Assembly: GCA_000092065.1 (NCBI GenBank)
Contig: CP000597.1
DNA length: 64,000 nt
Strand: one strand, 5' to 3'
Source: Ostreococcus lucimarinus
Lineage: Eukaryota
In this document: in pieces, positions 1 through 33,060 of the stretch
Layout: each line of letters starts with the position of its first letter
Numbering within the stretch: position 1 is the first letter of the stretch
Translations under genes and position numbers: made by a program
The notes under the pieces: model-generated
Seen by the model: only the letters and a program-made list of their open reading frames with translations
The model's database searches: none
Told to the model about the DNA's origin: nothing

Positions 1-528
1 TCATCCCGCCTGCGATCCGCGCCCTCGCGCGCGTCCTCGTCCTCGTCCTCGCGCGCGCGTCGCGCCTCCGTCGCGCCGTCGTCGCCGCAGAAATCATCTT
101 CATCGACGCGACTCGGCGTCGTCACGCCGCTCTTCGACCCATCGCGCGCGCGCGCGCGTCCCTCGGCGTCGCCCTTCGCCGTCGTCGCGCGCGTCGGCGT
201 CGTCCGGCGCGCGCCGGCGTCGTCGCGCGCCATCGACGTCGGCGGCGCCGCGATGTGACGCGGCCGGTCGCGTCGATCGACGTCGAGGTTCGCGCGGCGC
301 GGTCGAACCTCGCGCTGAGGTTCGATCGCGCGCGCGATCGAACCTCGAGCGACGGTTCGACGGTCGATTCGCGGCGTCGGCGACCGTCGCCGCCGCACCG
401 CGCGACGCGATCGTCGAGCGCGCGCGCCGAGGGCGCCGAACGCGCGCGGCGCGAGCGGCGCGCGTCTCGAGCGGTGCGCGCGACCGCGCGGCGCGCCGGC
501 GAGGCGAGGCGAGGCGGCGATCGACGCG

Positions 529-2544
529 ATGGTGTTGCGCCGCGACGACGCGGCGACGACGACGGACGCGCGCACGGCGCTCGCGCGCGATCTCGCGCGC
601 GATGGGTGGTACGGCGACGACGCGGACGACGTCGAGCGCGGCGAGCGGCGGCGGACGCGCGGACGGGGTGGGTTTTGGACGCGCGCGCGGTGCGCGGCGT
701 TGGCGTTGGGTGTTACGGCGTGCGCGTGCGCGAGCGGCGCGGGCGTCGCGTCCACGGCGCGCGGACGCGCGGGCGCGAGCGCGCTCGGGGTGCAACCCGA
801 CGCGAGAGGGACGCCGCCGCCGGAGAGCGCGTTCATGCGAACGGCGAGGAAGGCGTTCGGGGCGGCGTTGATGCGAGCGAGTTATCACCAGACGCGCGCG
901 AGCGGCGACGTGGACACCGCGGAGGAGGCGGATGCGCTCGCGGATCGAGAGGCGATGGCGGTCGTCGTGGATGAGGATTTCGAGGACGATTCCAGGGAGG
1001 GTGATTTTCTGCGCGACGCGGGGAGACGCGCGGGGCCGGTTTCGGAGCTCGAACGGAGGCGAGAGGCGCGAAGGCGAGCGCATCGAGCGGCGGCGCGGCG
1101 CGCGGTGGCGCGCGCGAGCGCCGCGACGTCCGAACCACCGCCGGCGCCACCAGCGCCGACACCGCCGGCGCCGGCGCGCGCGACGACGCACGGCGCGGCG
1201 CATCAGCACCACGACGGCGGCGAGGGCGGTTTCTTGTCCGCGGCGCACGTGCGAGAGGCGAAGCGACAACACGCTCGTCACGACCGTCGAGTCGAACGGC
1301 GAGTGGAATCGCGCGAAGACGAAAAGGAAGAGAAAACAAAGAGGAAGGATGCGGCGGAGGGTGATGCCGTCGAGGATCAACCTGGTGCGACGATGGACGC
1401 GTACGACGACGACGAAGACTTCGTAGAGGCGGCGCCGTCAAAGCCGGCGGATGAGAGCGCGAAACAAAAGTACTTTAAATCCATCAACGGCGGTTACTTT
1501 GCCGCGCCACAGACGACGCGAGGCGACGATATCGGACGAATGATGAGACACGACAGAGCGAAGCACCAAAGTTTAGCGTCCTTGCACAACCGACCCGGAG
1601 CGATTCCGGGCTTGATCGACCATTTGCAAGCCAACGGCGCTCAAGTCGGCCAAATGCGTCTGATGACGTACACGAATTCCGCGTATTGGCCCATGGCGAA
1701 GCTTTTCATCGAGTCTGCCCAGCGCATACCGGGATTGGCCGATGCGTTGACGGTGATGGTGAGCGACCGCGCGACGCTCAAGCAGTGCGTGGCCACGGGG
1801 GTGATGTGCTTCTTAGATACGGATATGATCGACGTCCTCGGCGAACACATGAACAAAGACGGGAGCATCCAAGCCGGACAAGAAGATATGAGTGGAGATT
1901 TAGGCAAAGCCTTGCGCGTAGTGTGGACGTGGCGAAAAGTGCACGTGGTGTACACTCTCGTGAACGCCGGCTACGGGTGCTTGTTCCTCGACGCGTCGAC
2001 GCTGCTGCTGCGCGATCCGCGCTTGCTGATCAAGCAAAAGCTCGACGCTGGCGCACTCTTGGTGACGCTTTCGGACTTTGGCGGCGCACTGGAGCAAAAG
2101 GCCATCAACACGGGCTTAATCGGGGCGCGGCCGAATGAGTACGTCGGGAAATTGCTGGAGGATTGGATGGCGCTCGAACCCGAGGCGACGGATACCGAGC
2201 AAGCTTCGCTCACATGGAACATTGCGCCCAATGCTCGCGCAGACGGTGTTATCATCACCGCCCTCTCGCAGGAAGTCGCACCGTCGTACCTGACGTTCGA
2301 CGTCTCGCAGCACTTGGATCTAGACGAAGACGGAAGCGGCGAGCATCGCGGGTACATCGTACACGCCGCGTATTGCGGCTCAATCTCCGGAAAGTCAGCG
2401 TTCTTGTCGCGCGTGTCTCAATTAGCCGAAAATCCTAACCAGATCTTACCCGCGACGGAGGAAGAGAACGCGGGGTGCGACGTGTTCGATAGGCGCAAGT
2501 TCTTCACCTGCGGCCTCGCGCCTTGGGACGGCGTGTGCGAATGA
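529..2544 (+). CDS. Type II membrane glycosyltransferase, nucleotide-diphospho-sugar transferase (GT77 / RRA-arabinosyltransferase-like) family
   Basis: Continuous ORF with ATG at 529. It has an N-terminal cytosolic low-complexity region, then a hydrophobic TM-like stretch (CAALALGVTACACASGAGVA). The C-terminal 380 aa contain FLDTDMI / LFLDAS Dx(D)-like motifs, and the overall pattern resembles the plant Nucleotid_trans domain (RRA/RGXT-like). The start is uncertain; upstream exons are possible. Confidence 0.55.
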   Translation: MVLRRDDAATTTDARTALARDLARDGWYGDDADDVERGERRRTRGRGGFWTRARCAALALGVTACACASGAGVASTARGRAGASALGVQPDARGTPPPESAFMRTARKAFGAALMRASYHQTRASGDVDTAEEADALADREAMAVVVDEDFEDDSREGDFLRDAGRRAGPVSELERRREARRRAHRAAARRAVARASAATSEPPPAPPAPTPPAPARATTHGAAHQHHDGGEGGFLSAAHVREAKRQHARHDRRVERRVESREDEKEEKTKRKDAAEGDAVEDQPGATMDAYDDDEDFVEAAPSKPADESAKQKYFKSINGGYFAAPQTTRGDDIGRMMRHDRAKHQSLASLHNRPGAIPGLIDHLQANGAQVGQMRLMTYTNSAYWPMAKLFIESAQRIPGLADALTVMVSDRATLKQCVATGVMCFLDTDMIDVLGEHMNKDGSIQAGQEDMSGDLGKALRVVWTWRKVHVVYTLVNAGYGCLFLDASTLLLRDPRLLIKQKLDAGALLVTLSDFGGALEQKAINTGLIGARPNEYVGKLLEDWMALEPEATDTEQASLTWNIAPNARADGVIITALSQEVAPSYLTFDVSQHLDLDEDGSGEHRGYIVHAAYCGSISGKSAFLSRVSQLAENPNQILPATEEENAGCDVFDRRKFFTCGLAPWDGVCE

Positions 2545-8880: not shown

Positions 8881-10086
8881 ATGTTCGCGCGAACCTTGAA
8901 CACCGTCACCCTCGCGAGCGCCCCCGCGCGCGCGACGAAGCGCTGCGCGAAGCGCGCGACCGTGGTCGTGCGCGCCGAGGGCGAAACCGAGGCCGAGGCC
9001 GCGCCGGCGCCGGTCAAGGTGCGACGATTCGACGACGCGCGCGCGCGATGCGGGATCGCGTTTCGGACGTTCGGGCGGTGTGACGACGCGCGCGAACGCG
9101 CGGTGGGACGAACGACGGCGCGAAACTGTGGATGGGAAAAGTTTGCGGCGGATCGACGGCGTCGCGAGGGCGCGCGCGCGAGGGCGCGCGCGCGAGGGAG
9201 GGGCGATGGCGATCGGGGCGTTGATACGATCGCGCACCGTATCTCGCGACGGGGTTCAAAGATTTGGGTGATTTGTTGAGTCGTGACTCGCCAATCGTGG
9301 GGGTTGGGCGAGCGCGCGCGAGACGAGACGAGACGCGCGGTGACTGACGACGAATGCGTGTTTTTGTGTGTTTTACAGAAGGCGGCGCGCAAGACGGATG
9401 ACCTCGCGCCGTTGTACGTGCTCGGGAACTCTGACCAGTCGTTGTCTTACCTCGACGGCTCTTTGCCGGGCGACTACGGGTTCGATCCGCTCGGGTTGTC
9501 CGACCCGGAAGGTGCCGGTGGTTTCATCAACCCGCAATGGTTGGCGTACTCTGAAGTGATCCACGGTCGATGGGCAATGCTCGGTGTGGCCGGTATGGTT
9601 GCCCCGGAGGTGCTCGGCGGCCTCGGCATCATCCCGCAAGAAACCGGCTTGGTCTGGTACAAGGCGGGTATGATCCCGGCGCAAGGCACGTACGATTACT
9701 GGGCCAACCCGTTCACGATCTTCTGGATCAACGCCGCGTTGATGAACTTTGCTGAACTTCGCCGCGCGCAAGATTACTGGAACCCGGGCTCCATGGGCAA
9801 GCAAGAACTCATCGGCTGGGAAAAGATGCTCGGGGGCTCCGGCGAACCGGCATACCCGGGTGGTTTCTTCAACATCATGGGCCAAGGCAAGTCCGACATG
9901 GCGAAGATGCGTGTCAAGGAAATCAAGAACGGTCGTCTTGCGATGATGGCGTGCTTCGCGTGCGGCGCGCAAGCCGTGATGACGGGTGAAGGCCCGGTGA
10001 AGAACTTGATTGACCACGTCTCCGATCCGTTCGGCCACAACTTGCTCGTGAACTTCCAAAACATTGGCGGCGTCTCTCCGTTCTAA
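8881..10086 (+). CDS. Light-harvesting chlorophyll a/b-binding protein (LHC/Lhcp), two exons: join(8881..9018,9379..10086)
   Basis: Exon 2 carries the canonical LHC helices ([33 protein letters not shown]). The transit peptide ([35 protein letters not shown]...) lies in a separate upstream ORF in the same frame. An in-frame stop separates them. Donor GTCAAG|GTGCGAC at 9019, branch ACTGACGA at 9343-9350, acceptor TTTTACAG| at 9378. Confidence 0.8.
9019..9378 (+). other. Spliceosomal intron 1 of LHC gene (360 nt, phase 0)
   Basis: GTGCGAC donor, ACTGACGA about 30 nt upstream of a T-rich tract and CAG acceptor. It joins the transit-peptide exon to the mature LHC in frame. Confidence 0.6.
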
Positions 10087-10177
10087 GCGGGTTGACATTT
10101 AGCTAGTAGCAGCGCTTTGTTTTGTATGTAAACACAACAAAAGCATCATCAAAAACAATCGTCCCATCAACTTCCTC

Positions 10178-10876
10178 CTACTCGGCGACGCCCCACGCCT
10201 GGCGCGCGCATTCGACGGCGTCGCTCGGTTTGGCGAGACGCAGCGTTTCCAACGCCGCGGTCGCGGTCGCGGTCCCGGCCAAACGTAAGTGCGCGCGAAA
10301 GCAACCACAGCGCGTCAGCGCGCACAGAATGCTCGCCGCACGCTCGACGCAATTTTCGTCTCGCTCGACGCGAGCGCGAATCAGTCGAACGAAATCGCGC
10401 AACGCGTCCAACCCGATCTCAACCTTGAACACTGACTCGAACGCGTCGAGCGGAAAGTCGAACAAGAATTGTGTCTTCAACGCGTCGTCGGTTCCGCACG
10501 TGCGTCGCCATGCGCGCGCGAATTCATCCGCCGTGCGCGGCGCGCGCGGCGACGGCGCGGTCAACGAACCGCCGCCGTTGACCTCGGACGCGCGCGGGCG
10601 ACGTAGATCGAACGCGACGTTCGAGATCTGAACGTCGTGACTCTGAGCCGCATGAAACACTCGCGACGTCGTCGTCGCCGCCGCCGTTCGCGATTTCTCG
10701 ATCGGTTTCAAGTTGGCTCCGAGCACGAGCTGGCGAAAGGCTTGGTAGTCGCACCGTTGCTCAGCGGCGCGCTTCTTCGCGTCGTCCACGGCGGCGCGGT
10801 GACGATCGAGTTCGAGCGCGCGAGAGAATGCGATTTCCATAGATTCGTGGCGCTGGAGCGCCCGCGGGGCGTTCAT
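10178..10876 (-). CDS. CCDC103-like protein (dynein arm assembly factor family, RPAP3_C-like domain)
   Basis: YQAFRQLVLGANLKPIEK and EFARAWRR ... LFDFPLDAFESVFKVEIGLDALRDFV resemble human CCDC103 (YEEFRGIVLASHLKPLERK; DFYRDWRR ... FQTDVGFGLLGELL). First ATG at 10876; the tool ORF starts at a TTG at 10954. Confidence 0.4.
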   Translation of the reverse strand: MNAPRALQRHESMEIAFSRALELDRHRAAVDDAKKRAAEQRCDYQAFRQLVLGANLKPIEKSRTAAATTTSRVFHAAQSHDVQISNVAFDLRRPRASEVNGGGSLTAPSPRAPRTADEFARAWRRTCGTDDALKTQFLFDFPLDAFESVFKVEIGLDALRDFVRLIRARVERDENCVERAASILCALTRCGCFRAHLRLAGTATATAALETLRLAKPSDAVECARQAWGVAE

Positions 10877-11015
10877 CGTCGACGATGGTACGAGGGGAAG
10901 AGTGACGCCGCGCGTGGCGCGACGAAGTAGTGGATATTTTTTCTCGGATAACAAACTTCAACGCGTTTCCGCATTGAGGGATCAACCAAACGCTGCGATT
11001 CGCGGGCTAAGGCGC

Positions 11016-12293
11016 TTAGTACACCTCGACGTGCCATTGGCCCTTCTTCTTGAGGCCTTCGAGCCATTCTTCGTAGCTGATGCCCTTCTCCTTGCACACG
11101 CCTTCCAACATGGACAAGATGCCCGGCATCATACCCTTGAGACCGCAGAAGTACATGTGAGCGCCGCCGTCGAGGAGTTGGAACACTTGGTCCTTGTACT
11201 CTTCAACCTTGTCTTGGATGTACATCTTACCACCGTTCTTGTTGGTGTCTTCGCGGGAGAGCGCGTAGTCGATGCGGAACTGATCCGGGAAACGCTTGGC
11301 GCACTCTTGGAACTCGTCGTCGTACAACTTGGCGTCAGAGTTAGCGACACCCATGAACAACCACGCGAGACCCTTGAATTCCCAGTTCGGGACGTCTTCG
11401 AGGAAGAATCGGCGAATGTAGGAGCGCATCGGGGCGATACCGGTACCGGTGGCGACCATGATGACCGGCGTCGCCGGGTCCTTCGGCAAGAGCATGACTT
11501 GACCAGTCGGGCCAGTCATCATGACTTCGGCACCCGGCTTGGCGTCGCACAAGAAGTTGGAGCAGATGCCCTTCTTGGCCGGATCTTCGGCGTTCATTTC
11601 CGGATCCCAGTACGTCGCACGGCGAACGCACAAGGTCGCGGTTTGGCCGTCGTAGGAGTCGCCGTAACGGGACGACGCGATGGAGTACAAGCGCACGCCG
11701 TGCGGCACTTCCTTACCCTTGGAGTTCACCTTGGTACCCGGCGGGATGACACCGTACGATTGACCTTCCCAGAACGGCATCTTACCACCGTGTTCGATGA
11801 TGATGTGGCACGTTTCGCCAGTCGCGTTCGGGCCGACGATGCGCTCGACGGAGCGCACCTTACCCGTGAACGGTTCCTTGTTCTTGAACGTGTTCAACGG
11901 AAGCGGCATGTCCTCGAGCTCGAGCGGCACCTTCGCGCGTCCCTTCGGGTCGATGTTCTTGTTCGCCGTCGGCGAGCACTGCAAGCCGAGACCGTAGTCC
12001 GTGCCTTCGGCGCGCACCACCGCCGTCGCGCGGCGCGCCTTGGTTTGGCGCGCCGCGTTGATCTTCGCGCCGGCGAACGCGGAAACCTATCGCACCGCGT
12101 CATCACGCGCGTCACATCGTCAGTCTCCGCGCGCATCGCATCGCGCGCCTTCGCATTCATCCCCCTCGCGCCTCCGCGCGCGTCTCGTCGCGCGCGTCGC
12201 GCTCGCCTCGCGTCTCGCCGGGTTCCAAAGCCCGATCGCCCGCCCGCTCGGTCCATCGCGCATCGCTCGGCGCACCTTCGCGGAAACGTTCAT
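11016..12293 (-). CDS. petH: Ferredoxin-NADP+ reductase, chloroplast (FNR/PetH), two coding exons: complement(join(11016..12086,12276..12293))
   Basis: Near full-length match to plant-type FNR ([48 protein letters not shown]). The tool ORF starts at an internal GTG and lacks a Met. The transit-peptide end ([28 protein letters not shown]) is in frame just after a TAG|GTT acceptor. An 18-nt micro-exon ATGAACGTTTCCGCGAAG (MNVSAK) sits at 12293..12276. Donor AAG|GTGCGCC, branch ACTGACGA, acceptor GATAG. Confidence 0.85.
12087..12275 (-). other. Spliceosomal intron between FNR start micro-exon and main exon (189 nt, phase 0)
   Basis: Donor GTGCGCC (minus strand), branch GAGACTGACGATG 32 nt upstream of the acceptor AG at 12088-12087. 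An in-frame TGA and TAG inside the intron explain why the ORF track splits here. Confidence 0.55.
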
Positions 12294-12892
12294 CTGCGCT
12301 CGTGGAAGCGATCGCACGATTTCATTCCATTCGTCAGTCCTCCGCGCGCGTCTCGCGCGCGTTCGCCTTCGTCGTCGCGTCCCGTCGAAGCGATCGCCGT
12401 CGACCCGCGATCGCCGCGCGTCGATCGCCGCGCGTCGCGTTTTTCCCGCCGTTCGCGCGCGCGCGTCCCTACGCGCGCGCGCGACGGCGACGCGATCGAG
12501 CGCGCGAATATTTTTGTCGCGCGCGCGTCGCGCGCGAGACGCACCGTGAGCGCCATCGCGCGCGTCGTTCGAGAGTGTCGCGCGCGGCGCGGCGTCGGCC
12601 GACCTTATCCGAGTCTCGCGTCGTCGTGGGTGATACACGGAACATCTCTCGGGGTGGTCGGTCGCCGTTTGCGTATTGTGCGCCGCGGAACGCCATGTGT
12701 GTGGGATTTTCGTGACGACCGGCGCGTGCCCGTCATCGCGCGCGCGTCGACGCGAGACCGCGACGCGCGATGCGTGCGAACGCGAGCCCGCGCGACGCGC
12801 GTGACGCGATGCCGCCGCGCGGTGGCGCGCGCGCGACGACGCGACGCGCGACGCGCGCGACGACGCGGCGATGCGAAGGGACGCGTAACGCG

Positions 12893-13639
12893 ATGACGTC
12901 GCGCGTCGCGCGCGCGCGCGTCGTCGCGCGCGCGTCGGACGCGCGCGAGGGATCGCTGTTGGACGCGATGGACGACGCGTGCCCGGTGCCGCGGGATCAG
13001 CGGCCGCGGGCGCAGTACGAGGAGCTCAGGGACGGGGTGGTGCAGTCGTGGCCGACGCGCGGCGCGGCCGGCTACGCGGCGCGCGTGACGGGGCTGTTTG
13101 GGTTCTTTTACGGCGTCGTCGCGTACCCGATCGCGTGTGAGTCGTACGATCCGACGAGTCAGTTCACGGAGACGTGCGTGAGCGCGCTCGTGGGGGCGTC
13201 GGGAGCGACGGCGGCGATGGTGTTGAACATGTACAACGGGTGGTCGTACGTGCGCGACAGGTTGTTGAGCGCGACGGTGGAGTACGAGGAGACGGGGTGG
13301 TACGATGGGCAGGTGTACGTGAAGGATCCGGAGATGCTGGCGAGGGATAGACTTTTGGGGACGTACACCGTGCGACCGGTGGTGGAGATGTTGAGGAAAA
13401 CGTTGATTGGGTGCGGGGCGACGGCGATGATTTCGCTGCTCGCGCTGCGAGTCATCGACGCGCCGAGCGGGCAGGGTCGAGGCGATTTCGGCGCGCAACA
13501 AGGGTATTACTCCGAGACGTCCGCGGCGAAATATGAAGAAGACGAGGAGGAGGAGGAAGACATGGAGCAAATGCAAGCGAGCGCGTTTCGTTGGTCTTCT
13601 GACGCGGACGCTCCGGCGATCGAGATTTCCAGAGAATGA
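12893..13639 (+). CDS. DUF1230 family plastid protein (CGLD27 / Ycf36-like)
   Basis: CPVPRDQRP..QYEEL and TVEYEETGWYDGQVYVKDPEMLARDRLLGTYTVRPVV match the conserved DUF1230/CGLD27 core. An Arg/Ala-rich transit-like N-terminus starts at the ATG at 12893 (MTSRVARARVVARA). The tool ORF extends to an ATG at 12770. Confidence 0.6.
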   Translation: MTSRVARARVVARASDAREGSLLDAMDDACPVPRDQRPRAQYEELRDGVVQSWPTRGAAGYAARVTGLFGFFYGVVAYPIACESYDPTSQFTETCVSALVGASGATAAMVLNMYNGWSYVRDRLLSATVEYEETGWYDGQVYVKDPEMLARDRLLGTYTVRPVVEMLRKTLIGCGATAMISLLALRVIDAPSGQGRGDFGAQQGYYSETSAAKYEEDEEEEEDMEQMQASAFRWSSDADAPAIEISRE

Positions 13640-13703
13640 ATAGATTTTGCTGCGTAGTTTGTCAATTCTAAACCCCCTAGTGTAACTCCCTTCTACCTAC
13701 TTA

Positions 13704-15758
13704 CTACTGCTCCCCGTTCGCCTCGAGCGTCTGGAGCGTGCTGGCGAACCGCACGCACACCTCGGCGTGCAGCGGGAGCGGCGCGCGAATGCTTCCAAAT
13801 TCATCCGCGATGTTTTCGCTCAAGCACATCATTCCGAGCTGCGACAGACGCGTGGCGTATAGCGCGGCCAAATGCTTCAGCGTGTTCATATCTGTCGTGG
13901 CGTCGAGCGCTCGCACGCGCGCGCTCGATACGTTGGTGTTGAATGCGACGCGGAATGATTTCTGCGCACACGGCGGCGCCGCGTACGTCTTGACGGTCTT
14001 GGTCTCCTCGACGCTCTCCGCGACGAATGACACATCGCGCGCCGTGGTCGGCACCAGGGCGGCGATGCGCGCGGGCACGGAGTCGGGCTCAAAGCATGTC
14101 ATCTCCAGACGCGTCAAGAAATCGCGATCGAGCGGTGCGGGCGCAGCTTTGCACGCTGTTTCCAGCGCCGCGCGCTCCGCCGATGACGGCGCACCCAGGC
14201 GACAAATCGCCGCGCGCTGAAACTTTAATCGCTCATTCGCTTTCGCGCCGTACGCGAACGCCAACTGCTCGGCGAGTGCGCTCGTTCGATCTATGAGCCA
14301 TCGCAAGCCAGTCGCGAGGCAGTCGGCCTCGTCCGCGAACGGTTCGGCCTCGAGCGTGAGGAATTCGCCGTGTGAGTCGGACCACGAGGCGACGATCCAT
14401 CGCGACGCCGCCACGACGTACGCGCAGTGCAAGCCACGAACACGCGAGTCGTCGTCGTCGATTTCGGGCGTCAACGTGTATAGCGGCTCGTACGCGGGAA
14501 ACGGTGGGAGATTGCGCTCGCTCGACGTCTCTGGAATCCTAAACAACGGGTGCGGCGTTCGCCTGCCGACGACGGCGGCGCCCGAGACGCCCTCGCGCCC
14601 GTCCGTCGTCTCGGAGGTGCGAAAACTTCGCGGGGCATCGTTGAGATGATCGTTCGGGAGCGACAATCCCCGCGTCACCGTAGGTCTGGTGAGTTTAGTG
14701 AAGACGTTGAACGCCATCGCTCGCACGCTCGTGGATGACCAAGAGTACGCGTCTTCGCACCACGACGACGGAATCGCTTGCACGGAGACGGACAAGAAGC
14801 GTCGCGCCACCGACGCCGTCGCGGCGCTCATGACGTGCGATGCGAGCGCGATCACGGTCAAGGCGTCGATATCTTCGACTTCGTCGGGAATGACGACGTA
14901 AATCACGCACATTCGCGGACCGAGCGCGCCGAGCTCAGCCGCGCGCTGCGCCGCCGCGCTCAACGTTCTCGAATACCGCTCCAACGCCGAAAGCGTCGAC
15001 GCGCTCGCACCGTCCTCGGCGCCGTCGAACAAGCCCGCGTCGTCGCCTTCGACCATCGATGCGTGCGTCCCCAGCCCCAGCGCCGCGTACTCGCGAGAAA
15101 TCTCTCGCATCACCGTCGCCGCGCCGCGTCTCGCGCGTTCGCTCGTCGTCTCCCCCGCGCACACCGCGTACGCGCAATCCTTCCCTCTCCCCGCGTACGG
15201 CTCAAACGGCGCCGCGCGCCACCGCTCCACGCACTCCTCCACCGCGCACGTCCCATCTTTCCCTCCCACGTCCAACCAATCCCCTTGATACCGCGTCCTG
15301 ATCCCCCGCCCCGTCGTCGCCGCCGTCGCCTCGCGCGTCCCGCCCGCCCCCCGTGCCTCGTCGTCTCTCCCTCCCATCCCGCACTTCGCCCGCGCCCGCG
15401 TCGCCGCCGCGCGTCTCACCGGATCCCCAGCGCTCATCGCCGCGCGCGCCGCGATCGCCAGCGCCTCCGCGTCGCGCAGCGTCGCCGCGAACGCCGTCGC
15501 CCGCGCGCGCGCCGGCGTCCGCCGCGTCCGCGCGCGCCCGCGATTCCTCCCTCCCTCGTCGCGCCCGCGCGCGCGCGCGCGCGCGCGTGGCGATCGACGC
15601 GTCGCCGGCGTCGGCGTGTTCGCGATCCACGGCGCGACGTACGGGCGTCGATACGGCGTCGCGCGCGTCGAGGAGCGCGTCGTCGTCGTCGCGTCGTCGT
15701 CGCTCGCGCGTCGCGCGTCGTCGCTCGAGCGTCGCGCGTCGCGCGCGGGCGAGTCCAT
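13704..15758 (-). CDS. Mediator complex subunit Med13-like protein (C-terminal Med13_C-like domain), putative
   Basis: RGLHCAYVVAASRWIVASWSDSHGEFLTLEA ... ICRLG resembles the MED13 C-terminal region ([28 protein letters not shown] ... IGRLG). The long low-complexity N-terminus starts at the ATG at 15758. It is much shorter than metazoan MED13, so the assignment is tentative. Confidence 0.35.
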   Translation of the reverse strand: MDSPARDARRSSDDARRASDDDATTTTRSSTRATPYRRPYVAPWIANTPTPATRRSPRARARARGRDEGGRNRGRARTRRTPARARATAFAATLRDAEALAIAARAAMSAGDPVRRAAATRARAKCGMGGRDDEARGAGGTREATAATTGRGIRTRYQGDWLDVGGKDGTCAVEECVERWRAAPFEPYAGRGKDCAYAVCAGETTSERARRGAATVMREISREYAALGLGTHASMVEGDDAGLFDGAEDGASASTLSALERYSRTLSAAAQRAAELGALGPRMCVIYVVIPDEVEDIDALTVIALASHVMSAATASVARRFLSVSVQAIPSSWCEDAYSWSSTSVRAMAFNVFTKLTRPTVTRGLSLPNDHLNDAPRSFRTSETTDGREGVSGAAVVGRRTPHPLFRIPETSSERNLPPFPAYEPLYTLTPEIDDDDSRVRGLHCAYVVAASRWIVASWSDSHGEFLTLEAEPFADEADCLATGLRWLIDRTSALAEQLAFAYGAKANERLKFQRAAICRLGAPSSAERAALETACKAAPAPLDRDFLTRLEMTCFEPDSVPARIAALVPTTARDVSFVAESVEETKTVKTYAAPPCAQKSFRVAFNTNVSSARVRALDATTDMNTLKHLAALYATRLSQLGMMCLSENIADEFGSIRAPLPLHAEVCVRFASTLQTLEANGEQ

Positions 15759-22671: not shown

Positions 22672-25600
22672 ATGCGGAAAAATTACCTGCTGAAGACGAA
22701 GGGCGTGCTGCGGTGCTGCACGCTGTGCGAGATCTTGGTGCCGGTGATTTTCTTGGGGCTCATGTGCCTGCCGAAGGCGTTGGTGCCGGATTCGAGGACG
22801 AACGATGAGCTGTCGAGGCCGTACGCGCTCGCGGGGGGGATCGAGAGCGTGAACCAGAGGACGCCGAGGGGGTTTCGGTTCGTGGTGGCGCCGGCGAGCG
22901 CGGAGACGCTGGAGCTCGGACGGCGAGCGTACGTGCACGCGATGTGCTTGAGCGAGCGGTCGATCGCGAAGGATAGGAGCTATGCGAACGATTTTGAGGA
23001 CGGGAAAAAGAATTTGTTGAATTTGATGGATGATCAGGTGCAGGCGTCGTCGAACGTCGCGACGGGGGTCAAATCGGCGTTCGCCGCGCTGTCGTACGAC
23101 GTCACGGCGATGCCCGCGGCGTGTTCGGATGCGTGCCTGCAGGACTCGTCGTGCGTGACGAGTACGTGGGACGCTATTTTAGACGAAGTCGTCGTGACCA
23201 AGGCGGATGAAGCCGCGGCGATGGCGTACGTCGCCAGTCGTCCCGGGGAAGTTTTCGCGTACGCGCGTTTTGATTCGGGAGGTAACGTCGCGAGCACGCG
23301 CGCGTTCGCGTACACGCTGCGCTTGAATTCGACGAACGTTGCGAACGAGGACAAGGCGGTGGCGGCGTTCATGGAGGACGACTTTACCGGGAGATGGGAC
23401 AGCGCGTACAACACAGATGATTGGGCAAAGTACAAGTCGTTTGCGTATGCGCAAAACGCGTTCGACGCGGCGATCATCGACATGAAGGACGGAGGCAGTG
23501 CGTATAGCGTGACGTTAGACACATCTCTCAAGCCATTTCCTTGGTTGGGGTTCGACTACAACGTCGGTGGCGTCATCGCCGCAGCCTTTTACGGCTTCGT
23601 CGGCTCGCTCGCGTTTCAAACCAACGTCGTCCTCGTCATGAAATCCATCGTCGTTGAGAAGGAATTGCGATTGCGAGAAGGGATGAAGATGATGGGTATG
23701 TCAAACACGATGTTCTGGTGGTCTTGGTTCTTCACGCACTGGCTTTCGGCGATGATTTCCGTCGTCTTGATCACGTTGGTCGGGATTTACCCGTTTTCGT
23801 ACACGAATCAATTCATTCAATTCATCTTTTACACGTTTTGGGTGGCGTCTTTAACGCTTTGGAACTTTTGGATCTCGACATTCTTTTCCAAATCGATCAC
23901 CGCCACCATAGTCGGCTGTTTCGCATACGTCCTCACCATGGTTCCTTCCATCGCGGTCCGCATCACGCAGCCCGAGGGCAGCGGCGCTTGGATCTTAGCG
24001 TGCATATTTCCATCCGGGGCGATGAACATGTGGGGCGCGGCGCTGGCTATTCTGGAGGTGAATAAGAAGGGTATCACGATGGAGACATTCAACGAAGACG
24101 TAACGCTCAAGGGGAACGTCACGTGCGCTGGTATCTTAGGCATGGTGATTTTCGATTGCTTATTTTACGCGTTTCTCACCTTTTACTTCGACGCCGTGTG
24201 GAAAACCGAATACGGCACGCGCCAGCCTCCTTGGTTTCTATTCACGCGTAAGTACTGGTGCGGTGACGCGTCGAAGGTCATCGATGATGAAACGCTTGGA
24301 ATGCACGAGCAAGAGTCTGGGGACGCCGTCGAGCCGCTCACGAAGCAACAGATGAAGTCAGCCAGCGTCGTCGTTCGCGGTTTGACGAAGAAGTTTGGCG
24401 ACGAAGTCACTGCGGTGGATAATTTGAGTATGACCTTTGTTCCTGGCCAAGTGAGTGGATTACTTGGTCACAATGGTGCTGGTAAAACGACGACGATTAG
24501 TGTTCTCACGGGTATGATTGAACGGACCTCTGGTCGAGCGACTATTGACGGGTACGACACCAAAACCCAGATGCGAGAAATTCGCGCCGGTCTCGGTATC
24601 TGCCCTCAATTCGACGTCCTTTGGCCGACACTCACGGTGCGCGAACATTTACAATTATACGCCGCATTTGCGGGTATGCAAAAAGAGGATGTAGAACGAG
24701 AACTCAAGCAAGTCGTGGAAGAGGTTGCGCTGACGGAGAAGATTGACGCGAACTCGAAGGATCTATCGGGTGGGATGAAGCGTAAGCTCTCGCTCGCTAT
24801 TGCGTTTATCGGCAGTCCGTCCGTAGTGTTTCTCGACGAACCAACGTCTGGGATGGACCCTTACTCGCGACGATTCACGTGGGACGTCATTCGCAAACGA
24901 GCCGCCAACTGCACAGTCTTGCTCACGACGCACTTTTTGGACGAGGCTGATTTGCTGTGCGATCGAGTCGCCATCATGAGCGCTGGTCATCTTGCATGCA
25001 TCGGTTCGCCACTATTCCTCAAGTCTAAATTCGGCACTGGTTATCTGCTCACGTTTGCGCGTCATAGTCGCGCGTCATCGACGCAAATCGCGTCGATGAC
25101 GCAGCACAACTCGAACGCCATGCTGCGAGTGATTCAACACTTCGTACCCAAAGCCGTTGTTCACAGCGACGTCGGCGCCGAGCTATCGTTTTCTTTACCA
25201 TTCGAGTCTACCGGCGACTTTTCTGCGTTATTCAAGGCTCTCGATGAGCAGATCGGGAATTTAGGGTACGCAAGTTACGGCATCTCGTGCACCACGCTCG
25301 AGGAGGTATTTCTATCTCTCGCACATGGGGTGAAGGCGGCGTCCACGGCGCAATCGAAAGGCAAGGTTGTGGACTTAGACGCACCCGTGGAAGAAGCCGA
25401 CGAATGTGAAGACCTCGATGCAAAATTGGTCGCTGGCAACCGCAAGGACATTCGCCAAACCTACGCGAAGGGTGGTGCCTTACTCAGAATCCAACTCAAA
25501 CGCTTGCTCTGGAAGCGTTGGCTCAATTGGCGTCGCAGCATGCGGTCGATATTCATGCAACTTCTCGTACCTTGTTTGCTCGTCGTGCTCGCGCTTTATT

Positions 25601-28113
25601 TGACCACGTTGAGTTTTGAACCTGGGAGCACGATTTCGGCGAAAGAAATCAGTCGAAAGCTACTCAATAACAAGAAGACCCTCGTGACGTACTCCCCTTC
25701 GGCGACTGAGGCGGTCGCCGTCACGACGAACTTGATGACAGACACTTACGCGTTACGCTCTCAGTATCAACCCGAGATTTCGTGTATGTGCAACTGCTTA
25801 GCGAAAGATCAAACGATCACGATGTCTGCCATGACGTGTTGCGCGTATAACAGAACCATTGAGTCAACGTGTCGAGTAGCGGCATTGGCACGTCTTGCGG
25901 GCGGGACGTATTGCGTCAAGTCTCCAAAAGGCTACGATGTACAAAGAGACATCGTTTCTATGGGGCTATCGTGCTCGTCCATGATAGATGACAGTATCGA
26001 TAGTTACTTACTAGACGTCCAAGAGCCATCGGTGCCTTGTGACATGCAACCGACGGGATCGCCGTGCGACGTCTTGTACGTTGACGAGTACGACGGCACG
26101 CGCTATAGTCACACGCTGTACGGACATCAAACAGCCTTACACGGTATGCCGACCGTCATCAACAACGTGAATAGTGCTATTTTGCGCAAGCGCACGTCCG
26201 ATTCTAGTGCGAGCATCACGACTACGATTCACTGGTATCCGAGCGCGGTGAATACACTGAAGGAAGGAGACATCGAAGAGCCGGACAACTCTGGAACTAC
26301 GTTCATCGTTTCCATGTTCGTCGTCATGGGGCTCGCTGTTCTCAGTGCTGGGATTTCAATCTTTCCAGTGTACGAACGATGCAATAACTCCAAACACTTA
26401 CAGCTCGTGAGTGGAATCGATAAACGAATTTATTGGCTGGCGCACTACGTCGCAGACGCCATACAGCTCGTTATTCCGTTCGCCGTCATCGTCGTCATTT
26501 TTGCCGGTTTCAATGCGTCTTACTTCCAAGGTCAACTCGGGGCGATCACTGTTTTGTTGGGTTTTTTCATGTTGACCTCTATTCCACACGCGCATTATCA
26601 AGGATTTTGGTACACTAGCGAATACTACACCTTTGTTGGGCAAATCGGAACAAACACCACCGTTGGCGTGATCACCACCATCGCCGGTATCGTCACCGAT
26701 GCCCTGAAAGACTTGAATAAAGAGACGTTGTTGGTGAGCAAAATCTTCAATTACACGTTTCCGCTCATCATTCCGCACTTTAGTTTCGGGAAAGGTCTAT
26801 ACGACATCGCACAAAATGGTTTGGACAAGACGCGGAAAATTTTCCGCGAGGATTGCATGTGCCTCGTCCCCGTCGTACCAAAGGGTTCTTTCAACGTCAT
26901 CGCCGACGATTTGGGCTATTTGATCGGAACATTTTTCATGTGGAGCGCTTTGTTGTTTTACAAAGAGTATAAAGAGATTTTCGCAAGTTGGATACTGATG
27001 AAACGTGGAAACTCGCAAGAGGTATCGCCGAGCGTCGACGAAGATGAAGACGTGCGAGCCGAGCGCGAACGCGTGCTCTCAGGAGACATCGACGGTGATG
27101 GCGTCATCATGGACCGCTTATCCAAGACGTACAAAGGCTTGTCAGCGAGTTCTACAAAGCTCGCCGTTCGAAATCTCAGCGTGGGTCTACATCGCGATCA
27201 ATGCTTTGGTTTGCTCGGCATCAACGGCGCGGGAAAGACGACGACATTCAAGATGCTCACGGGCGAGTTCCCACCATCTGCGGGTGACGCGATCATTCAA
27301 GATCGAGACGGTGCGTCTCACAGTGTGCGTACTGATCTTAACGACGCGCGACGATTGATGGGATATTGTCCTCAGTTCAACGGCTTGCAACCAAACTTTA
27401 CCGCACGCGAGCACATTGAATTCTACGCCGCCATTCGCGGAATGCCGACGGAGATGATTCCGCGCGTGACGGAAGATCTGCTGCAGCGTATGGGTTTGAC
27501 TTTGTATGCCGATAGACAAGCTGGAACATACAGTGGAGGCAACAAGCGTAAGCTTTCTGTCGCGTTGTCGCTCGTCGGCGAACCAGAAGTCGTCTTCTTG
27601 GATGAACCATCAACTGGTATGGATCCCGAAGCGAGACGGTTCATGTGGGACGTGATCTCGTCCATGATGGTTGGACGCACGATTGTTCTCACATCGCACT
27701 CTATGGAGGAGTGTGAGGCACTCTGTAATCGCATCGGTATCATGGTGAGTGGCGAGTTCAAGTGTCTTGGCTCCTTGCAGCACTTGAAGTCGCGCTTTAG
27801 TGAAGGATACTCCATCGATCTGCGCTTTTCCGACGGAAAAGGAAACGCCGTTATGGAAGCGCTACGAGCCAAACACGGAGACATTGGAGCGGAGATAGTA
27901 GAAACACACGCCACAGAAATTAAACTTCGCGTGATGAATCCCGAAATGAAACTTTGGCGTATTTTTGACGCCGTCGAAGCTTTGAAGCAGTCGGACGACG
28001 ACGGCGCAAGAATTGACGACTACTCCGTGTCGCAGACGACTTTAGAGCAGGTCTTCATCCGATTTGCAAAGGAGCAAACCGAGGAGATACACGCGGCACC
28101 GGGATTACAGTAG
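22672..28113 (+). CDS. Full-size ABC transporter, ABCA subfamily (two TMD-NBD halves)
   Basis: 1813-aa intronless ORF with ATG at 22672. N-terminal ABCA-type TM1 and large extracytoplasmic loop; two NBDs with Walker A (GHNGAGKTT / GINGAGKTT), signature LSGGMKRKLS / YSGGNKRKLS and Walker B (VVFLDEP). Confidence 0.9.
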   Translation: MRKNYLLKTKGVLRCCTLCEILVPVIFLGLMCLPKALVPDSRTNDELSRPYALAGGIESVNQRTPRGFRFVVAPASAETLELGRRAYVHAMCLSERSIAKDRSYANDFEDGKKNLLNLMDDQVQASSNVATGVKSAFAALSYDVTAMPAACSDACLQDSSCVTSTWDAILDEVVVTKADEAAAMAYVASRPGEVFAYARFDSGGNVASTRAFAYTLRLNSTNVANEDKAVAAFMEDDFTGRWDSAYNTDDWAKYKSFAYAQNAFDAAIIDMKDGGSAYSVTLDTSLKPFPWLGFDYNVGGVIAAAFYGFVGSLAFQTNVVLVMKSIVVEKELRLREGMKMMGMSNTMFWWSWFFTHWLSAMISVVLITLVGIYPFSYTNQFIQFIFYTFWVASLTLWNFWISTFFSKSITATIVGCFAYVLTMVPSIAVRITQPEGSGAWILACIFPSGAMNMWGAALAILEVNKKGITMETFNEDVTLKGNVTCAGILGMVIFDCLFYAFLTFYFDAVWKTEYGTRQPPWFLFTRKYWCGDASKVIDDETLGMHEQESGDAVEPLTKQQMKSASVVVRGLTKKFGDEVTAVDNLSMTFVPGQVSGLLGHNGAGKTTTISVLTGMIERTSGRATIDGYDTKTQMREIRAGLGICPQFDVLWPTLTVREHLQLYAAFAGMQKEDVERELKQVVEEVALTEKIDANSKDLSGGMKRKLSLAIAFIGSPSVVFLDEPTSGMDPYSRRFTWDVIRKRAANCTVLLTTHFLDEADLLCDRVAIMSAGHLACIGSPLFLKSKFGTGYLLTFARHSRASSTQIASMTQHNSNAMLRVIQHFVPKAVVHSDVGAELSFSLPFESTGDFSALFKALDEQIGNLGYASYGISCTTLEEVFLSLAHGVKAASTAQSKGKVVDLDAPVEEADECEDLDAKLVAGNRKDIRQTYAKGGALLRIQLKRLLWKRWLNWRRSMRSIFMQLLVPCLLVVLALYLTTLSFEPGSTISAKEISRKLLNNKKTLVTYSPSATEAVAVTTNLMTDTYALRSQYQPEISCMCNCLAKDQTITMSAMTCCAYNRTIESTCRVAALARLAGGTYCVKSPKGYDVQRDIVSMGLSCSSMIDDSIDSYLLDVQEPSVPCDMQPTGSPCDVLYVDEYDGTRYSHTLYGHQTALHGMPTVINNVNSAILRKRTSDSSASITTTIHWYPSAVNTLKEGDIEEPDNSGTTFIVSMFVVMGLAVLSAGISIFPVYERCNNSKHLQLVSGIDKRIYWLAHYVADAIQLVIPFAVIVVIFAGFNASYFQGQLGAITVLLGFFMLTSIPHAHYQGFWYTSEYYTFVGQIGTNTTVGVITTIAGIVTDALKDLNKETLLVSKIFNYTFPLIIPHFSFGKGLYDIAQNGLDKTRKIFREDCMCLVPVVPKGSFNVIADDLGYLIGTFFMWSALLFYKEYKEIFASWILMKRGNSQEVSPSVDEDEDVRAERERVLSGDIDGDGVIMDRLSKTYKGLSASSTKLAVRNLSVGLHRDQCFGLLGINGAGKTTTFKMLTGEFPPSAGDAIIQDRDGASHSVRTDLNDARRLMGYCPQFNGLQPNFTAREHIEFYAAIRGMPTEMIPRVTEDLLQRMGLTLYADRQAGTYSGGNKRKLSVALSLVGEPEVVFLDEPSTGMDPEARRFMWDVISSMMVGRTIVLTSHSMEECEALCNRIGIMVSGEFKCLGSLQHLKSRFSEGYSIDLRFSDGKGNAVMEALRAKHGDIGAEIVETHATEIKLRVMNPEMKLWRIFDAVEALKQSDDDGARIDDYSVSQTTLEQVFIRFAKEQTEEIHAAPGLQ

Positions 28114-31477: not shown

Positions 31478-32661
31478 TTAATGGTCGGCGTCCGGGTTGT
31501 GGAAGTGGAACTTGCTCGCGCCGAGCGCTTCCATGACGGAATCGAAGATACCGAATTGACCGGCGGTGAGAGTACCGATCATGACGCAACGCGCGGCCAA
31601 ACCTTGGGTGCAGAGCTTGACAACGCCAGTCTCCGCGGCGATGCGGCCGAGACGCGTCACAATGGAACCGGTGCCCCCCGCGCCGGCTTTGTTCACCTTA
31701 GACAACAAGGTATCGGCGGGGTGGGAGATGATGGCGGCGACGACACCAGCGACGACACCAGAAGACAGAGAGACGGAGACGTTTTCAGAGCTCGTGCATT
31801 CCTTGGGAGACTTGCCCATGGACTCGTAGATGGCTTCGGCGGCGCGCCCTTGGACGGCGAACTTGGCCATGGTGTACGGCACTTGCTTGGCCAGAATCGG
31901 ACCGAAACCAGAGTAGAAACCGCTGATGATGCCTTCTTCGCTCGCCATCTTCGCCATGGCGCTGAGAGTGGACGGCGCGTACGTCGGGTTGGACACCAAA
32001 CGGATGCGCGTCGCCTCGAGCGGGCACAAGAAGACGTCGGCGATGAACTCGGCCACCGCGGCGGAGCCGAGGTAGATGGTGTTACGGTTATTCCACGCCT
32101 CCCGTTCGGTCATGCTTTGCGCGGCGTTGATCTTGAAGTATTCAACACCACCGAACTTGAACCAACCTTGGATAAAATAACCCACCGCCGTCGGACCGAG
32201 ACCGGTGAGCAAAGCCCCGGCGCCTTCCTCGGCAATCACCTTGGAGAAGCCAGACACCATACCGCCGTACTTGGACGGATCCAATTGCATGCGCGTCTGT
32301 ACCGATATAAAATTAAATCACGCTCGTCAGTCGATATTCGCACCGCACGCGACGTCGCGCGCGCGTCCGTCGTCGTCGACGCCCCGTCGAGCGCTCGCTC
32401 GCTCGTCGATTCATCCATCGCGGTTCGCGCGCGCGCCTCCGAGCGCACCTTGACCACATCCACCGGCGTCACCGCCCCGTGCGTGAACCCACAGCAGATC
32501 CCGCCCGAGAGCGCTCCCCGAAGGTAATAATCCAGCGTGTACTCCTTCTTCGACGCCGCCGCGAACGCCGGATTCGCGTTTCGTTCCTTCAGCGCGCCCA
32601 GCGTCGCCGTCGGCGCGTACAGGCTCGCCGGCGTCGCCCGCTTGATGAATTCTTGAAGCAT
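31478..32661 (-). CDS. Mitochondrial phosphate carrier (SLC25A3/PiC, mitochondrial carrier family), two coding exons: complement(join(31478..32296,32449..32661))
   Basis: Exon 2 matches PiC repeats 1-3 (TRMQLDPSKYGG..., GFGPILAKQVPYTMAKFAVQ). Exon 1 (ATG 32661) encodes ...DYYLRGALSGGICCGFTHGAVTPVDVVK, matching PiC helix 1 (TPLDLVKCRMQVD). Donor GTCAAG|GTGCGCT at 32448, branch TCGACTGACGAG, acceptor GGTACAG at 32297. Confidence 0.85.
32297..32448 (-). other. Spliceosomal intron in phosphate-carrier gene (152 nt, phase 0)
   Basis: GTGCGCT donor, ACTGACGA branch 29 nt upstream of an AT-rich tract (TTTAATTTTATATCGGTACAG). The splice restores the conserved VDVVK|TRMQ junction. Confidence 0.65.
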
Positions 32662-33060
32662 CTGCGTCGTCGCGCCGTCCGAACGTTCGCGCGCGCGTCA
32701 GTCGCTCCGCGCGCGCGTAAGATGCGCGCGATCTATCGGGACACCGCGCGCGCGCGATCGCGTCGCTCGCGTCGCGCCCTCGCGCCGCGCGCGCGCGTCG
32801 CGCGCGTCGATCGCGCGCGCGTCGTCGCGTCGCCCTCGCGCGCGCGCGCCGCGTCGAAACGCGCACCGTGATGGTTCGTCGAGGAGTGTCGCGCGCGCCG
32901 CGCGTCGTCGCCGCCGTCGTCGACCGCGTCCGCGTCGCCTCGCGAACGACGCGCCGAGGTTCAAATCGTCGCGTCGATCGACGGCGCGAGGTTCGAGGCG
33001 CGACCGGCGAACCCGGACCGACCGACGGACCGACCGACGCGCGCGGCAGACGCGCGCGCG

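Follow-up and report, generated by a model that had tools for sequence, protein, structure and literature searches.

Introns close to the start codon and a 5′-biased retention of introns are typical of intron-poor eukaryotes, and the size limits in common use for micro-exons range between 27 and 51 nt. In the green alga Ostreococcus lucimarinus, introns located outside chromosome 2 have an atypical 5′ consensus, GTGCGTG, and among the EST-confirmed introns ACTGAC is present in 87% and GACTGACG in 66.5% (Irimia & Roy, 2008, PMC2483917). For canonical introns of Micromonas, it is reported that donors read AG/GTGCGT, that the branch motif is NCTGAC and that the introns are biased toward the 5′ end of genes (Verhelst et al., 2013, PMC3879977). 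For plants, misannotated micro-exons have been reported that are short, internal, conserved across genera and missed automatically (Yu et al., 2022, cited in bioRxiv 10.1101/2023.01.31.526407). In that work micro-exons are defined as exons of 1–15 nt, and the 45 conserved micro-exon tags that it distinguishes gave no true micro-exons in Chlorophyta genomes.

Here we analyzed a locus on the minus strand of a 64-kb stretch of O. lucimarinus DNA (the window). Our results indicate, with a probability of roughly 0.85, that the nuclear gene encoding chloroplast ferredoxin-NADP+ reductase (petH/FNR) begins at this locus and is composed of three exons and two canonical U2-type introns (Table 1). The minus-strand frame running from 12086 to the stop codon TAA at 11018..11016 is open throughout, and its translation codes for a plant-type ferredoxin-NADP+ reductase. 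The stop is followed by a 3′UTR of about 88 nt with a poly(A) site near 10928, and in one of the transcript contigs described below (L003) the poly(A) tail starts past approximately this position. The FNR protein gave a Pfam match to NAD_binding_1 (E = 3e-23), and its residues 61–366 could be aligned to solved plant-type FNRs with E-values down to 5e-136. The alignment of residues 63–366 with maize root FNR (1jb9; E = 5e-136) was end-to-end, and the comparison with the spinach structure 1fnb gave E = 4e-86. Judged by the resemblance of its FAD-binding and NAD(P)-binding domains to those of solved FNRs, the gene product is a member of the plant-type ferredoxin-NADP+ reductases. The first ~60 residues of the precursor lie outside every solved chain, and the first ~38 are rich in Ala, Ser, Lys, and Arg, with no acidic residue before Glu37. 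An N-terminal extension of such composition, located beyond the solved enzyme, would represent a plastid transit peptide.

Table 1. Elements of the FNR gene of O. lucimarinus, listed from the 5′ end of the transcript.
Feature	Position in the window	Strand	Description
Exon 1, 32 nt	12545..12576	-	20-nt 5′UTR ACTCTCGAACGACGCGCGCG and four codons, ATG GCG CTC ACG (MALT); cap site ~12576
Most likely start codon	12554..12556	-	AUG nearest to the 5′ end of the mRNA, with G at both -3 and +4
Intron 1 (phase 0, 251 nt, following codon 4)	12294..12544	-	Donor ACG/GTGCGTC, acceptor GCGCAG/ATG; missing from 4/4 transcripts
Predicted branch site of intron 1, GACTGACG	12332..12339	-	Branch A 40 nt before the exon; usage predicted from consensus
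Exon 2, 18-nt micro-exon ATGAACGTTTCCGCGAAG	12276..12293	-	Residues 5–10 (MNVSAK); present in 4/4 transcripts
Intron 2, 189 nt, phase 0	12087..12275	-	Donor AAG/GTGCGCC, acceptor GATAG/GTT; from transcripts
Predicted branch site of intron 2, GACTGACG	12118..12125	-	Branch A 33 nt before the exon; usage predicted
Exon 3, 1.16 kb	10928..12086	-	Remainder of the presumed transit peptide and entire FNR enzyme; from translation and transcripts

The codon directly 5′ of position 12086 is an in-frame stop (TAG, 12089..12087), thus the frame of the main exon (exon 3) is unable to extend upstream. A previous reading of this DNA, made from the sequence only, had stated that the main exon contains no Met. 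In-frame Met codons do exist there, but the first of them encodes approximately residue 68 of the precursor, within the mature enzyme, and the statement holds in so far as none of them could start a transit peptide.

The exon-intron structure was examined on four public transcript contigs (L002–L005), of which one belongs to a JGI metatranscriptome and the others to Logan assemblies (SRR28369040, SRR28369134, SRR28369104), and which match the window at 99.9–100% identity (0–1 mismatch over 1.1–1.2 kb). In all four the junctions are exact, with 12545 followed by 12293 and 12276 by 12086; the 251-nt and 189-nt introns and the 18-nt exon between them are thus real. This support consists of assembled contigs, not read counts, and the three contigs that bear an adaptor or start identically have neighboring SRR numbers, and a single project is their probable origin. 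The predicted spliced 366-aa protein (MALTMNVSAKVSAFAG...) was found by exact-sequence look-up in a public protein collection, in records of JGI and Logan origin. The sequence-only reading had proposed the micro-exon MNVSAK at 12293..12276 followed by AAG/GTGCGCC, an intron on each side of it, a branch-acceptor module 5′ of its ATG and a donor at 12544. The transcripts bear out the micro-exon in four of four cases and confirm the four splice sites to the base; the module and the donor are present as well, with intron 1 spanning 251 nt, and the MNVSAK/VSAFAGAK junction suggested for inspection in cDNA was found in the transcripts.

The same contigs delimit the 5′ end of the mRNA. Two of them (L003 and L005) carry a template-switch adaptor, ...GTATCAACGCAGAGTACGGG, with ACTCTC immediately after it, so that the adaptor-marked 5′ end corresponds to 12576. 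The 5′ ends of these two contigs read ...GGTATCAACGCAGAGTACGGG and then directly ACTCTCGAAC, that is, position 12576 of the window, and we take ...GGTATCAACGCAGAGTACGGG to be the template-switching adaptor of SMART cDNA chemistry. A further contig, L004, begins at the identical base. As the genome bases ahead of 12576 are GAC rather than GGG, strand invasion by the adaptor is unlikely. The JGI contig (L002) matches the gene only up to 12565 at its 5′ side, where a chimeric part begins. This ~475-nt 5′ part was considered as a long leader and rejected, being an AT-rich fragment with an unrelated, probably bacterial, ORF that marks an assembly chimera.

Both introns belong to the U2-type canonical spliceosomal class of Ostreococcus introns outside chromosome 2, as they are removed as GT...AG and carry the species consensus signals. 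Similarly to the canonical introns of O. lucimarinus (PMC2483917) and Micromonas (PMC3879977), they are of the GT-AG type with GTGCGY donors and a single GACTGACG each, some tens of nt from the acceptor, measure ~190–250 nt, and are 5′-proximal, at positions common to several genera; they differ from these in lying just 18 nt apart, and in nothing essential. The acceptor of intron 1 at 12294 reads GAGCGCAG/ATG and its donor at 12544 reads CACG/GTGCGTC. In this intron the first AG past the branch site (GAG, 12300..12299) is skipped and the CAG located 5 nt further on is used. Complete donor/branch/YAG modules were detected 11 times in the window vs. 1.07 ± 1.05 (maximum 5) expected from 200 dinucleotide-preserving shuffles of it. 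We also observed that donor/branch/acceptor modules mark other 5′-proximal introns in the window, e.g., in the neighboring LHC gene.

Being internal, flanked by an intron on each side and included in 4/4 transcripts, the 18-nt exon is a micro-exon by the size limits in common use. It resembles the misannotated plant micro-exons in being short, internal, conserved across genera and missed by automatic annotation (Yu et al., 2022, cited in bioRxiv 10.1101/2023.01.31.526407). At 18 nt it exceeds the 1–15 nt definition of the latter text, corresponds to none of the 45 tags, and is part of a presumed transit peptide of poor conservation, not of a catalytic domain. Recognition of the micro-exon would proceed by intron definition, in which each of the short flanking introns would supply a full-strength, species-typical set of signals: a GTGCGY donor, a single GACTGACG 33–40 nt upstream of the exon, and a YAG acceptor.

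Comparison of genomic DNA showed that the layout of 12 coding nt, an intron, a tiny exon, and a second intron is common to five lineages (Table 2). In all five, exon 1 gives exactly 12 coding nt beginning with an ATG that has a purine at -3, exon 2 terminates in Ala-Lys (..AAG/GT), and the (D/P)YGLGL motif follows intron 2 at a distance of 29–30 codons. The three 18-nt exons differ mostly synonymously, mainly at third codon positions (TCC/TCG, GCG/GCC/GCA), and the intron sequences show no conservation between the lineages beyond the splice signals.

Table 2. Residues encoded around the two introns in the five lineages, with the size of exon 2.
Source	Exon 1 / exon 2 / beginning of exon 3	Exon 2
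Window	MALT / MNVSAK / VSAFAG	18 nt
L001 (Ostreococcus-like metagenome contig)	MSAT / MNISAK / VSAFSG	18 nt
L006–L009 (Ostreococcus-like metagenome contigs)	MAFT / MNVSAK / VSAFAG	18 nt
L010/L011 (Micromonas)	MAAQ / VFATPMLAK / SSFAGA	27 nt
L012 (Bathycoccus prasinos)	MAST / LSFAGLSAK / QCISQ	27 nt

The genes of Bathycoccus prasinos (GCA_964199455.1, protein P0028) and Micromonas (MMETSP, UniRef100_A0A6U0MSL5, P0129) share with the O. lucimarinus gene 12 coding nt in exon 1, two phase-0 introns, a tiny exon whose last two codons are GCC/GCA AAG (Ala-Lys), and one long exon. They differ from it in the length of exon 2, 27 vs. 18 nt, and in that only the Ostreococcus-like lineages have an exon 2 that begins with ATG. 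The N-terminus predicted for Micromonas is identical to that of the MMETSP M. pusilla transcript P0129, and that of Bathycoccus agrees fully with NCBI protein P0028. In both genera, no start other than the ATG of exon 1 yields the N-termini of the P0129 transcript ORF and of P0028. For one of the Ostreococcus-like lineages (L006–L009), exact look-up showed the predicted spliced protein MAFTMNVSAK... to be on record, while the version starting at MNVSAK was not recorded. This MAFT/MNVSAK lineage may represent O. tauri. As the layout is common to Ostreococcus, Bathycoccus, and Micromonas, the architecture predates the split of the three genera. By parsimony, the 27-nt exon 2 found in both Bathycoccus and Micromonas is probably ancestral and was cut to 18 nt in Ostreococcus.

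The structure supported by the transcripts differs from the reference annotation. The 360-aa sequence MALT/VSAFAG..., in which the micro-exon is skipped, is an exact match to XP_001422240.1 / ABP00557.1 / UniRef100_A4S9W0 of O. lucimarinus CCE9901, annotated as 'Ferredoxin--NADP reductase, chloroplastic'. This reference model starts at the ATG of exon 1 and has a single 458-nt intron (12544..12087), leaving out the six codons of the micro-exon; its joining of exon 1 directly to exon 3 agrees with the earlier remark that gene finders easily miss such exons. It is conceivable that the annotation is right for at least a part of the mRNA pool, the micro-exon being a cassette exon within a 458-nt intron and the 360-aa form a genuine product. 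Skipping would preserve the frame (18 is a multiple of 3) and would pair a consensus donor with a consensus acceptor, and the skipped protein does exist as a database entry, XP_001422240.1. We consider this unlikely, since the micro-exon is included in all four transcript contigs and is conserved with mostly synonymous changes, and since no transcript skipping it was found among the assembled contigs examined. The skipped 360-aa sequence is, moreover, recorded only in annotation-derived sources (NCBI, UniRef, nr, EukProt) and not in transcript assemblies, and an exact look-up of the exon-skipped proteins expected in two other lineages found neither on record. A gapped-pattern scan of metagenome contigs for both isoforms returned 0 matches; it missed also the known inclusion form and is thus uninformative.

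The 3′ part of exon 1 reads ATGGCGCTCACG, which encodes MALT, and its AUG is in frame with both the micro-exon and the main exon, giving a 366-aa precursor of the form MALT/MNVSAK/VSAFAG.... Between the adaptor-marked 5′ end and this AUG (12556) there is a 20-nt leader devoid of AUG. According to the scanning rule, the first AUG from the cap is expected to serve as the main initiation site. Ribosomes scanning from the cap would initiate at 12556, and the ATG that opens the micro-exon would then encode an internal Met5. Following this rule, translation most likely starts four codons upstream of the micro-exon, at AUG 12556 in the 32-nt exon 1. With such a start, intron 1 is a phase-0 coding intron located after codon 4 and not a 5′UTR intron. 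As the leader is short, some leaky scanning to the second AUG, which has A at -3 in the spliced mRNA, is possible. With the transit peptide removed, the mature protein would be the same from either start.

The sequence-only reading had placed the start at 12293, with an untranslated exon 1 and intron 1 as a 5′UTR intron, which would give a 362-aa precursor beginning with MNVSAK. The ATG at the very beginning of the micro-exon, its A at -3, and its retention in the three Ostreococcus-like lineages speak for this model, as does the position of the upstream AUG just 20 nt from the cap, which could permit some leaky scanning. Yet, we find it very unlikely, as every transcript has, ahead of the micro-exon, an in-frame AUG whose context is better (G at -3, G at +4), and this ATG together with the 9 nt that follow it in frame is conserved in five lineages. 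The exon 2 of Bathycoccus lacks an ATG and that of Micromonas begins with GTT, and the reference annotation also begins at MALT. In addition, the 362-aa version starting with MNVSAK is absent, by exact-sequence look-up, from the public protein collection that holds the 366-aa sequence. Such 362-aa forms are off record in two lineages for which the 366-aa forms are recorded, a difference that reflects ORF calling and not translation. An upstream exon with a different Met, which the sequence-only reading had listed as evidence against its model, essentially exists; it is spliced, however, to the micro-exon and not to the acceptor at 12086.

A recent insertion of both introns as copies of a repeated intron family, like the introner elements known in the related genus Micromonas (PMC3879977), is extremely improbable: the two introns are CG-rich and share ...GCGCGCGGAG(G)ACTGACGA..., but this block is the species-wide extended branch-site consensus, BLAST against the window gave diffuse matches only (~65%, on both strands) that reflect CG-rich low complexity, no discrete repeat copies of either intron were found in the 64-kb window, the intron sequences diverge freely between lineages, and the intron positions are common to Bathycoccus and Micromonas, whereas introner elements occupy novel positions (PMC3879977). 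Other searches were equally negative. When positions 11900..12800 were scanned against Rfam (E ≤ 1), nothing beyond chance matches below the threshold and no intron-encoded RNA family was found, a candidate start-site motif, GCGCGACACTC..TCGA, showed no enrichment in the window, and a scan for bacterial promoters and terminators, the models of which are irrelevant to a eukaryote, found nothing.

All introns of the FNR gene fall within its first 30 coding nt, while the other 1.07 kb of coding sequence is uninterrupted. The gene resembles in this respect the 5′-biased retention seen in intron-poor eukaryotes, and the arrangement fits such retention in these genomes. One could also regard the tandem 5′ introns with the micro-exon not as mere leftovers but as a selectively retained expression module, acting by enhancement or by an Ostreococcus-specific dual initiation or skipping, which we judge rather unlikely. 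If this were true, the module would have been kept since before the divergence of Ostreococcus, Bathycoccus, and Micromonas, in genomes that lost most of their other introns. It might then raise the output of a photosynthesis gene that is already strongly expressed, in the manner of intron-mediated enhancement. Alternatively, and in Ostreococcus only, the AUG at the first base of exon 2 behind a 20-nt leader could allow two initiation sites, or exon skipping could be regulated, in either case with alternative transit peptides as the result.

The feature described here is an ordinary gene structure of ancient conservation that consists of canonical signals, and it leaves the existing knowledge of FNR or of splicing unchanged. 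The result is an ordinary gene-model correction, useful as an annotation fix, as the reference protein XP_001422240.1 / A4S9W0 is short of six residues of the presumed transit peptide. It shows that in compact algal genomes gene finders can miss exons so small despite perfect signals in both flanking introns. The gene provides a clean example of the deep conservation of intron positions within a poorly conserved, presumed targeting peptide, and of the splicing of an 18-nt exon in a genome that has few introns and very strict splice signals.

Comparison of the FNR (ferredoxin-NADP reductase) region of the window (9283..15758) with contigs L001, L006-L010 and L012 showed that the order MedPIWI-domain gene, CGLD27-like gene, FNR, Dynein_attach_N/RPAP3_C gene and LHC is kept in the Ostreococcus-like metagenome contigs (L001, L006-L009), with the CGLD27-like gene divergent from FNR. 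Gene order around FNR was conserved in part in Micromonas (L010), and the CGLD27-FNR pair alone was retained in Bathycoccus (L012). At the level of base composition, G+C falls to 0.51-0.53 at 24001..28000 vs. approximately 0.60-0.70 across the rest of the window.

The neighboring LHC gene also carries a single 5′-proximal intron (9019..9378), with donor AAG/GTGCGAC (cut at the slash), branch motif GACTGACG and acceptor TTTTACAG followed by AAG. Its first exon comprises 46 codons, starting MFARTLNTV, and the mechanical ORF list includes a 267-aa ORF with a GTG start that runs through the end of this intron.

On the minus strand, FNR is followed by a gene encoding Dynein_attach_N and RPAP3_C domains. 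A gap of only ~50 nt separates the FNR poly(A) site (~10928) from the downstream ATG of this same-strand gene (10876..10874). The JGI metatranscriptome contig L002 extends beyond the poly(A) site to 10848, entering the Dynein_attach_N/RPAP3_C gene. L002 is an assembly chimera: positions 1..475 are an AT-rich fragment with an unrelated open reading frame, probably of bacterial origin. This fragment joins the FNR mRNA through a short overlap of CG-rich sequence at window 12565.

A candidate for a true 5′UTR intron, the type proposed for FNR intron 1 in the sequence-only reading, was found upstream of a reading frame that may encode a mitochondrial carrier. It has donor CACG/GTGCGCG, branch motif GACTGACG at 32703 and acceptor GACGCAG followed by exon sequence ATGCTTCAAGAA, and the ~25 nt preceding the donor show no ATG. 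Upstream of the candidate, GCGCGACACTCCTCGACGA is similar to the FNR start-site region GCGCGACACTCTCGAACGA.

Features of the LHC and putative-carrier loci in window coordinates
Feature	Coordinates	Strand	Remark
Chlorophyll a/b-binding protein (LHC) gene	8881..10086	plus	
Candidate true 5′UTR intron	32662..32866	minus	preceding exon 1 ends 32867
Second intron, following the candidate	32448..32297	minus	

At a more distant green-algal FNR locus (L013), a possible intron at 2067..2224 has donor GTCAAG/GTGCGCC and acceptor CCCCTGCAG followed by ATGAACGCC; this acceptor adjoins an apparent start codon.

In FNR intron 1 itself, the first AG after the branch site (CACGAG, window 12299..12300, minus strand) is passed over and the acceptor used is a CAG 5 nt beyond it. 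Splicing at the first AG would result in a frame shift.
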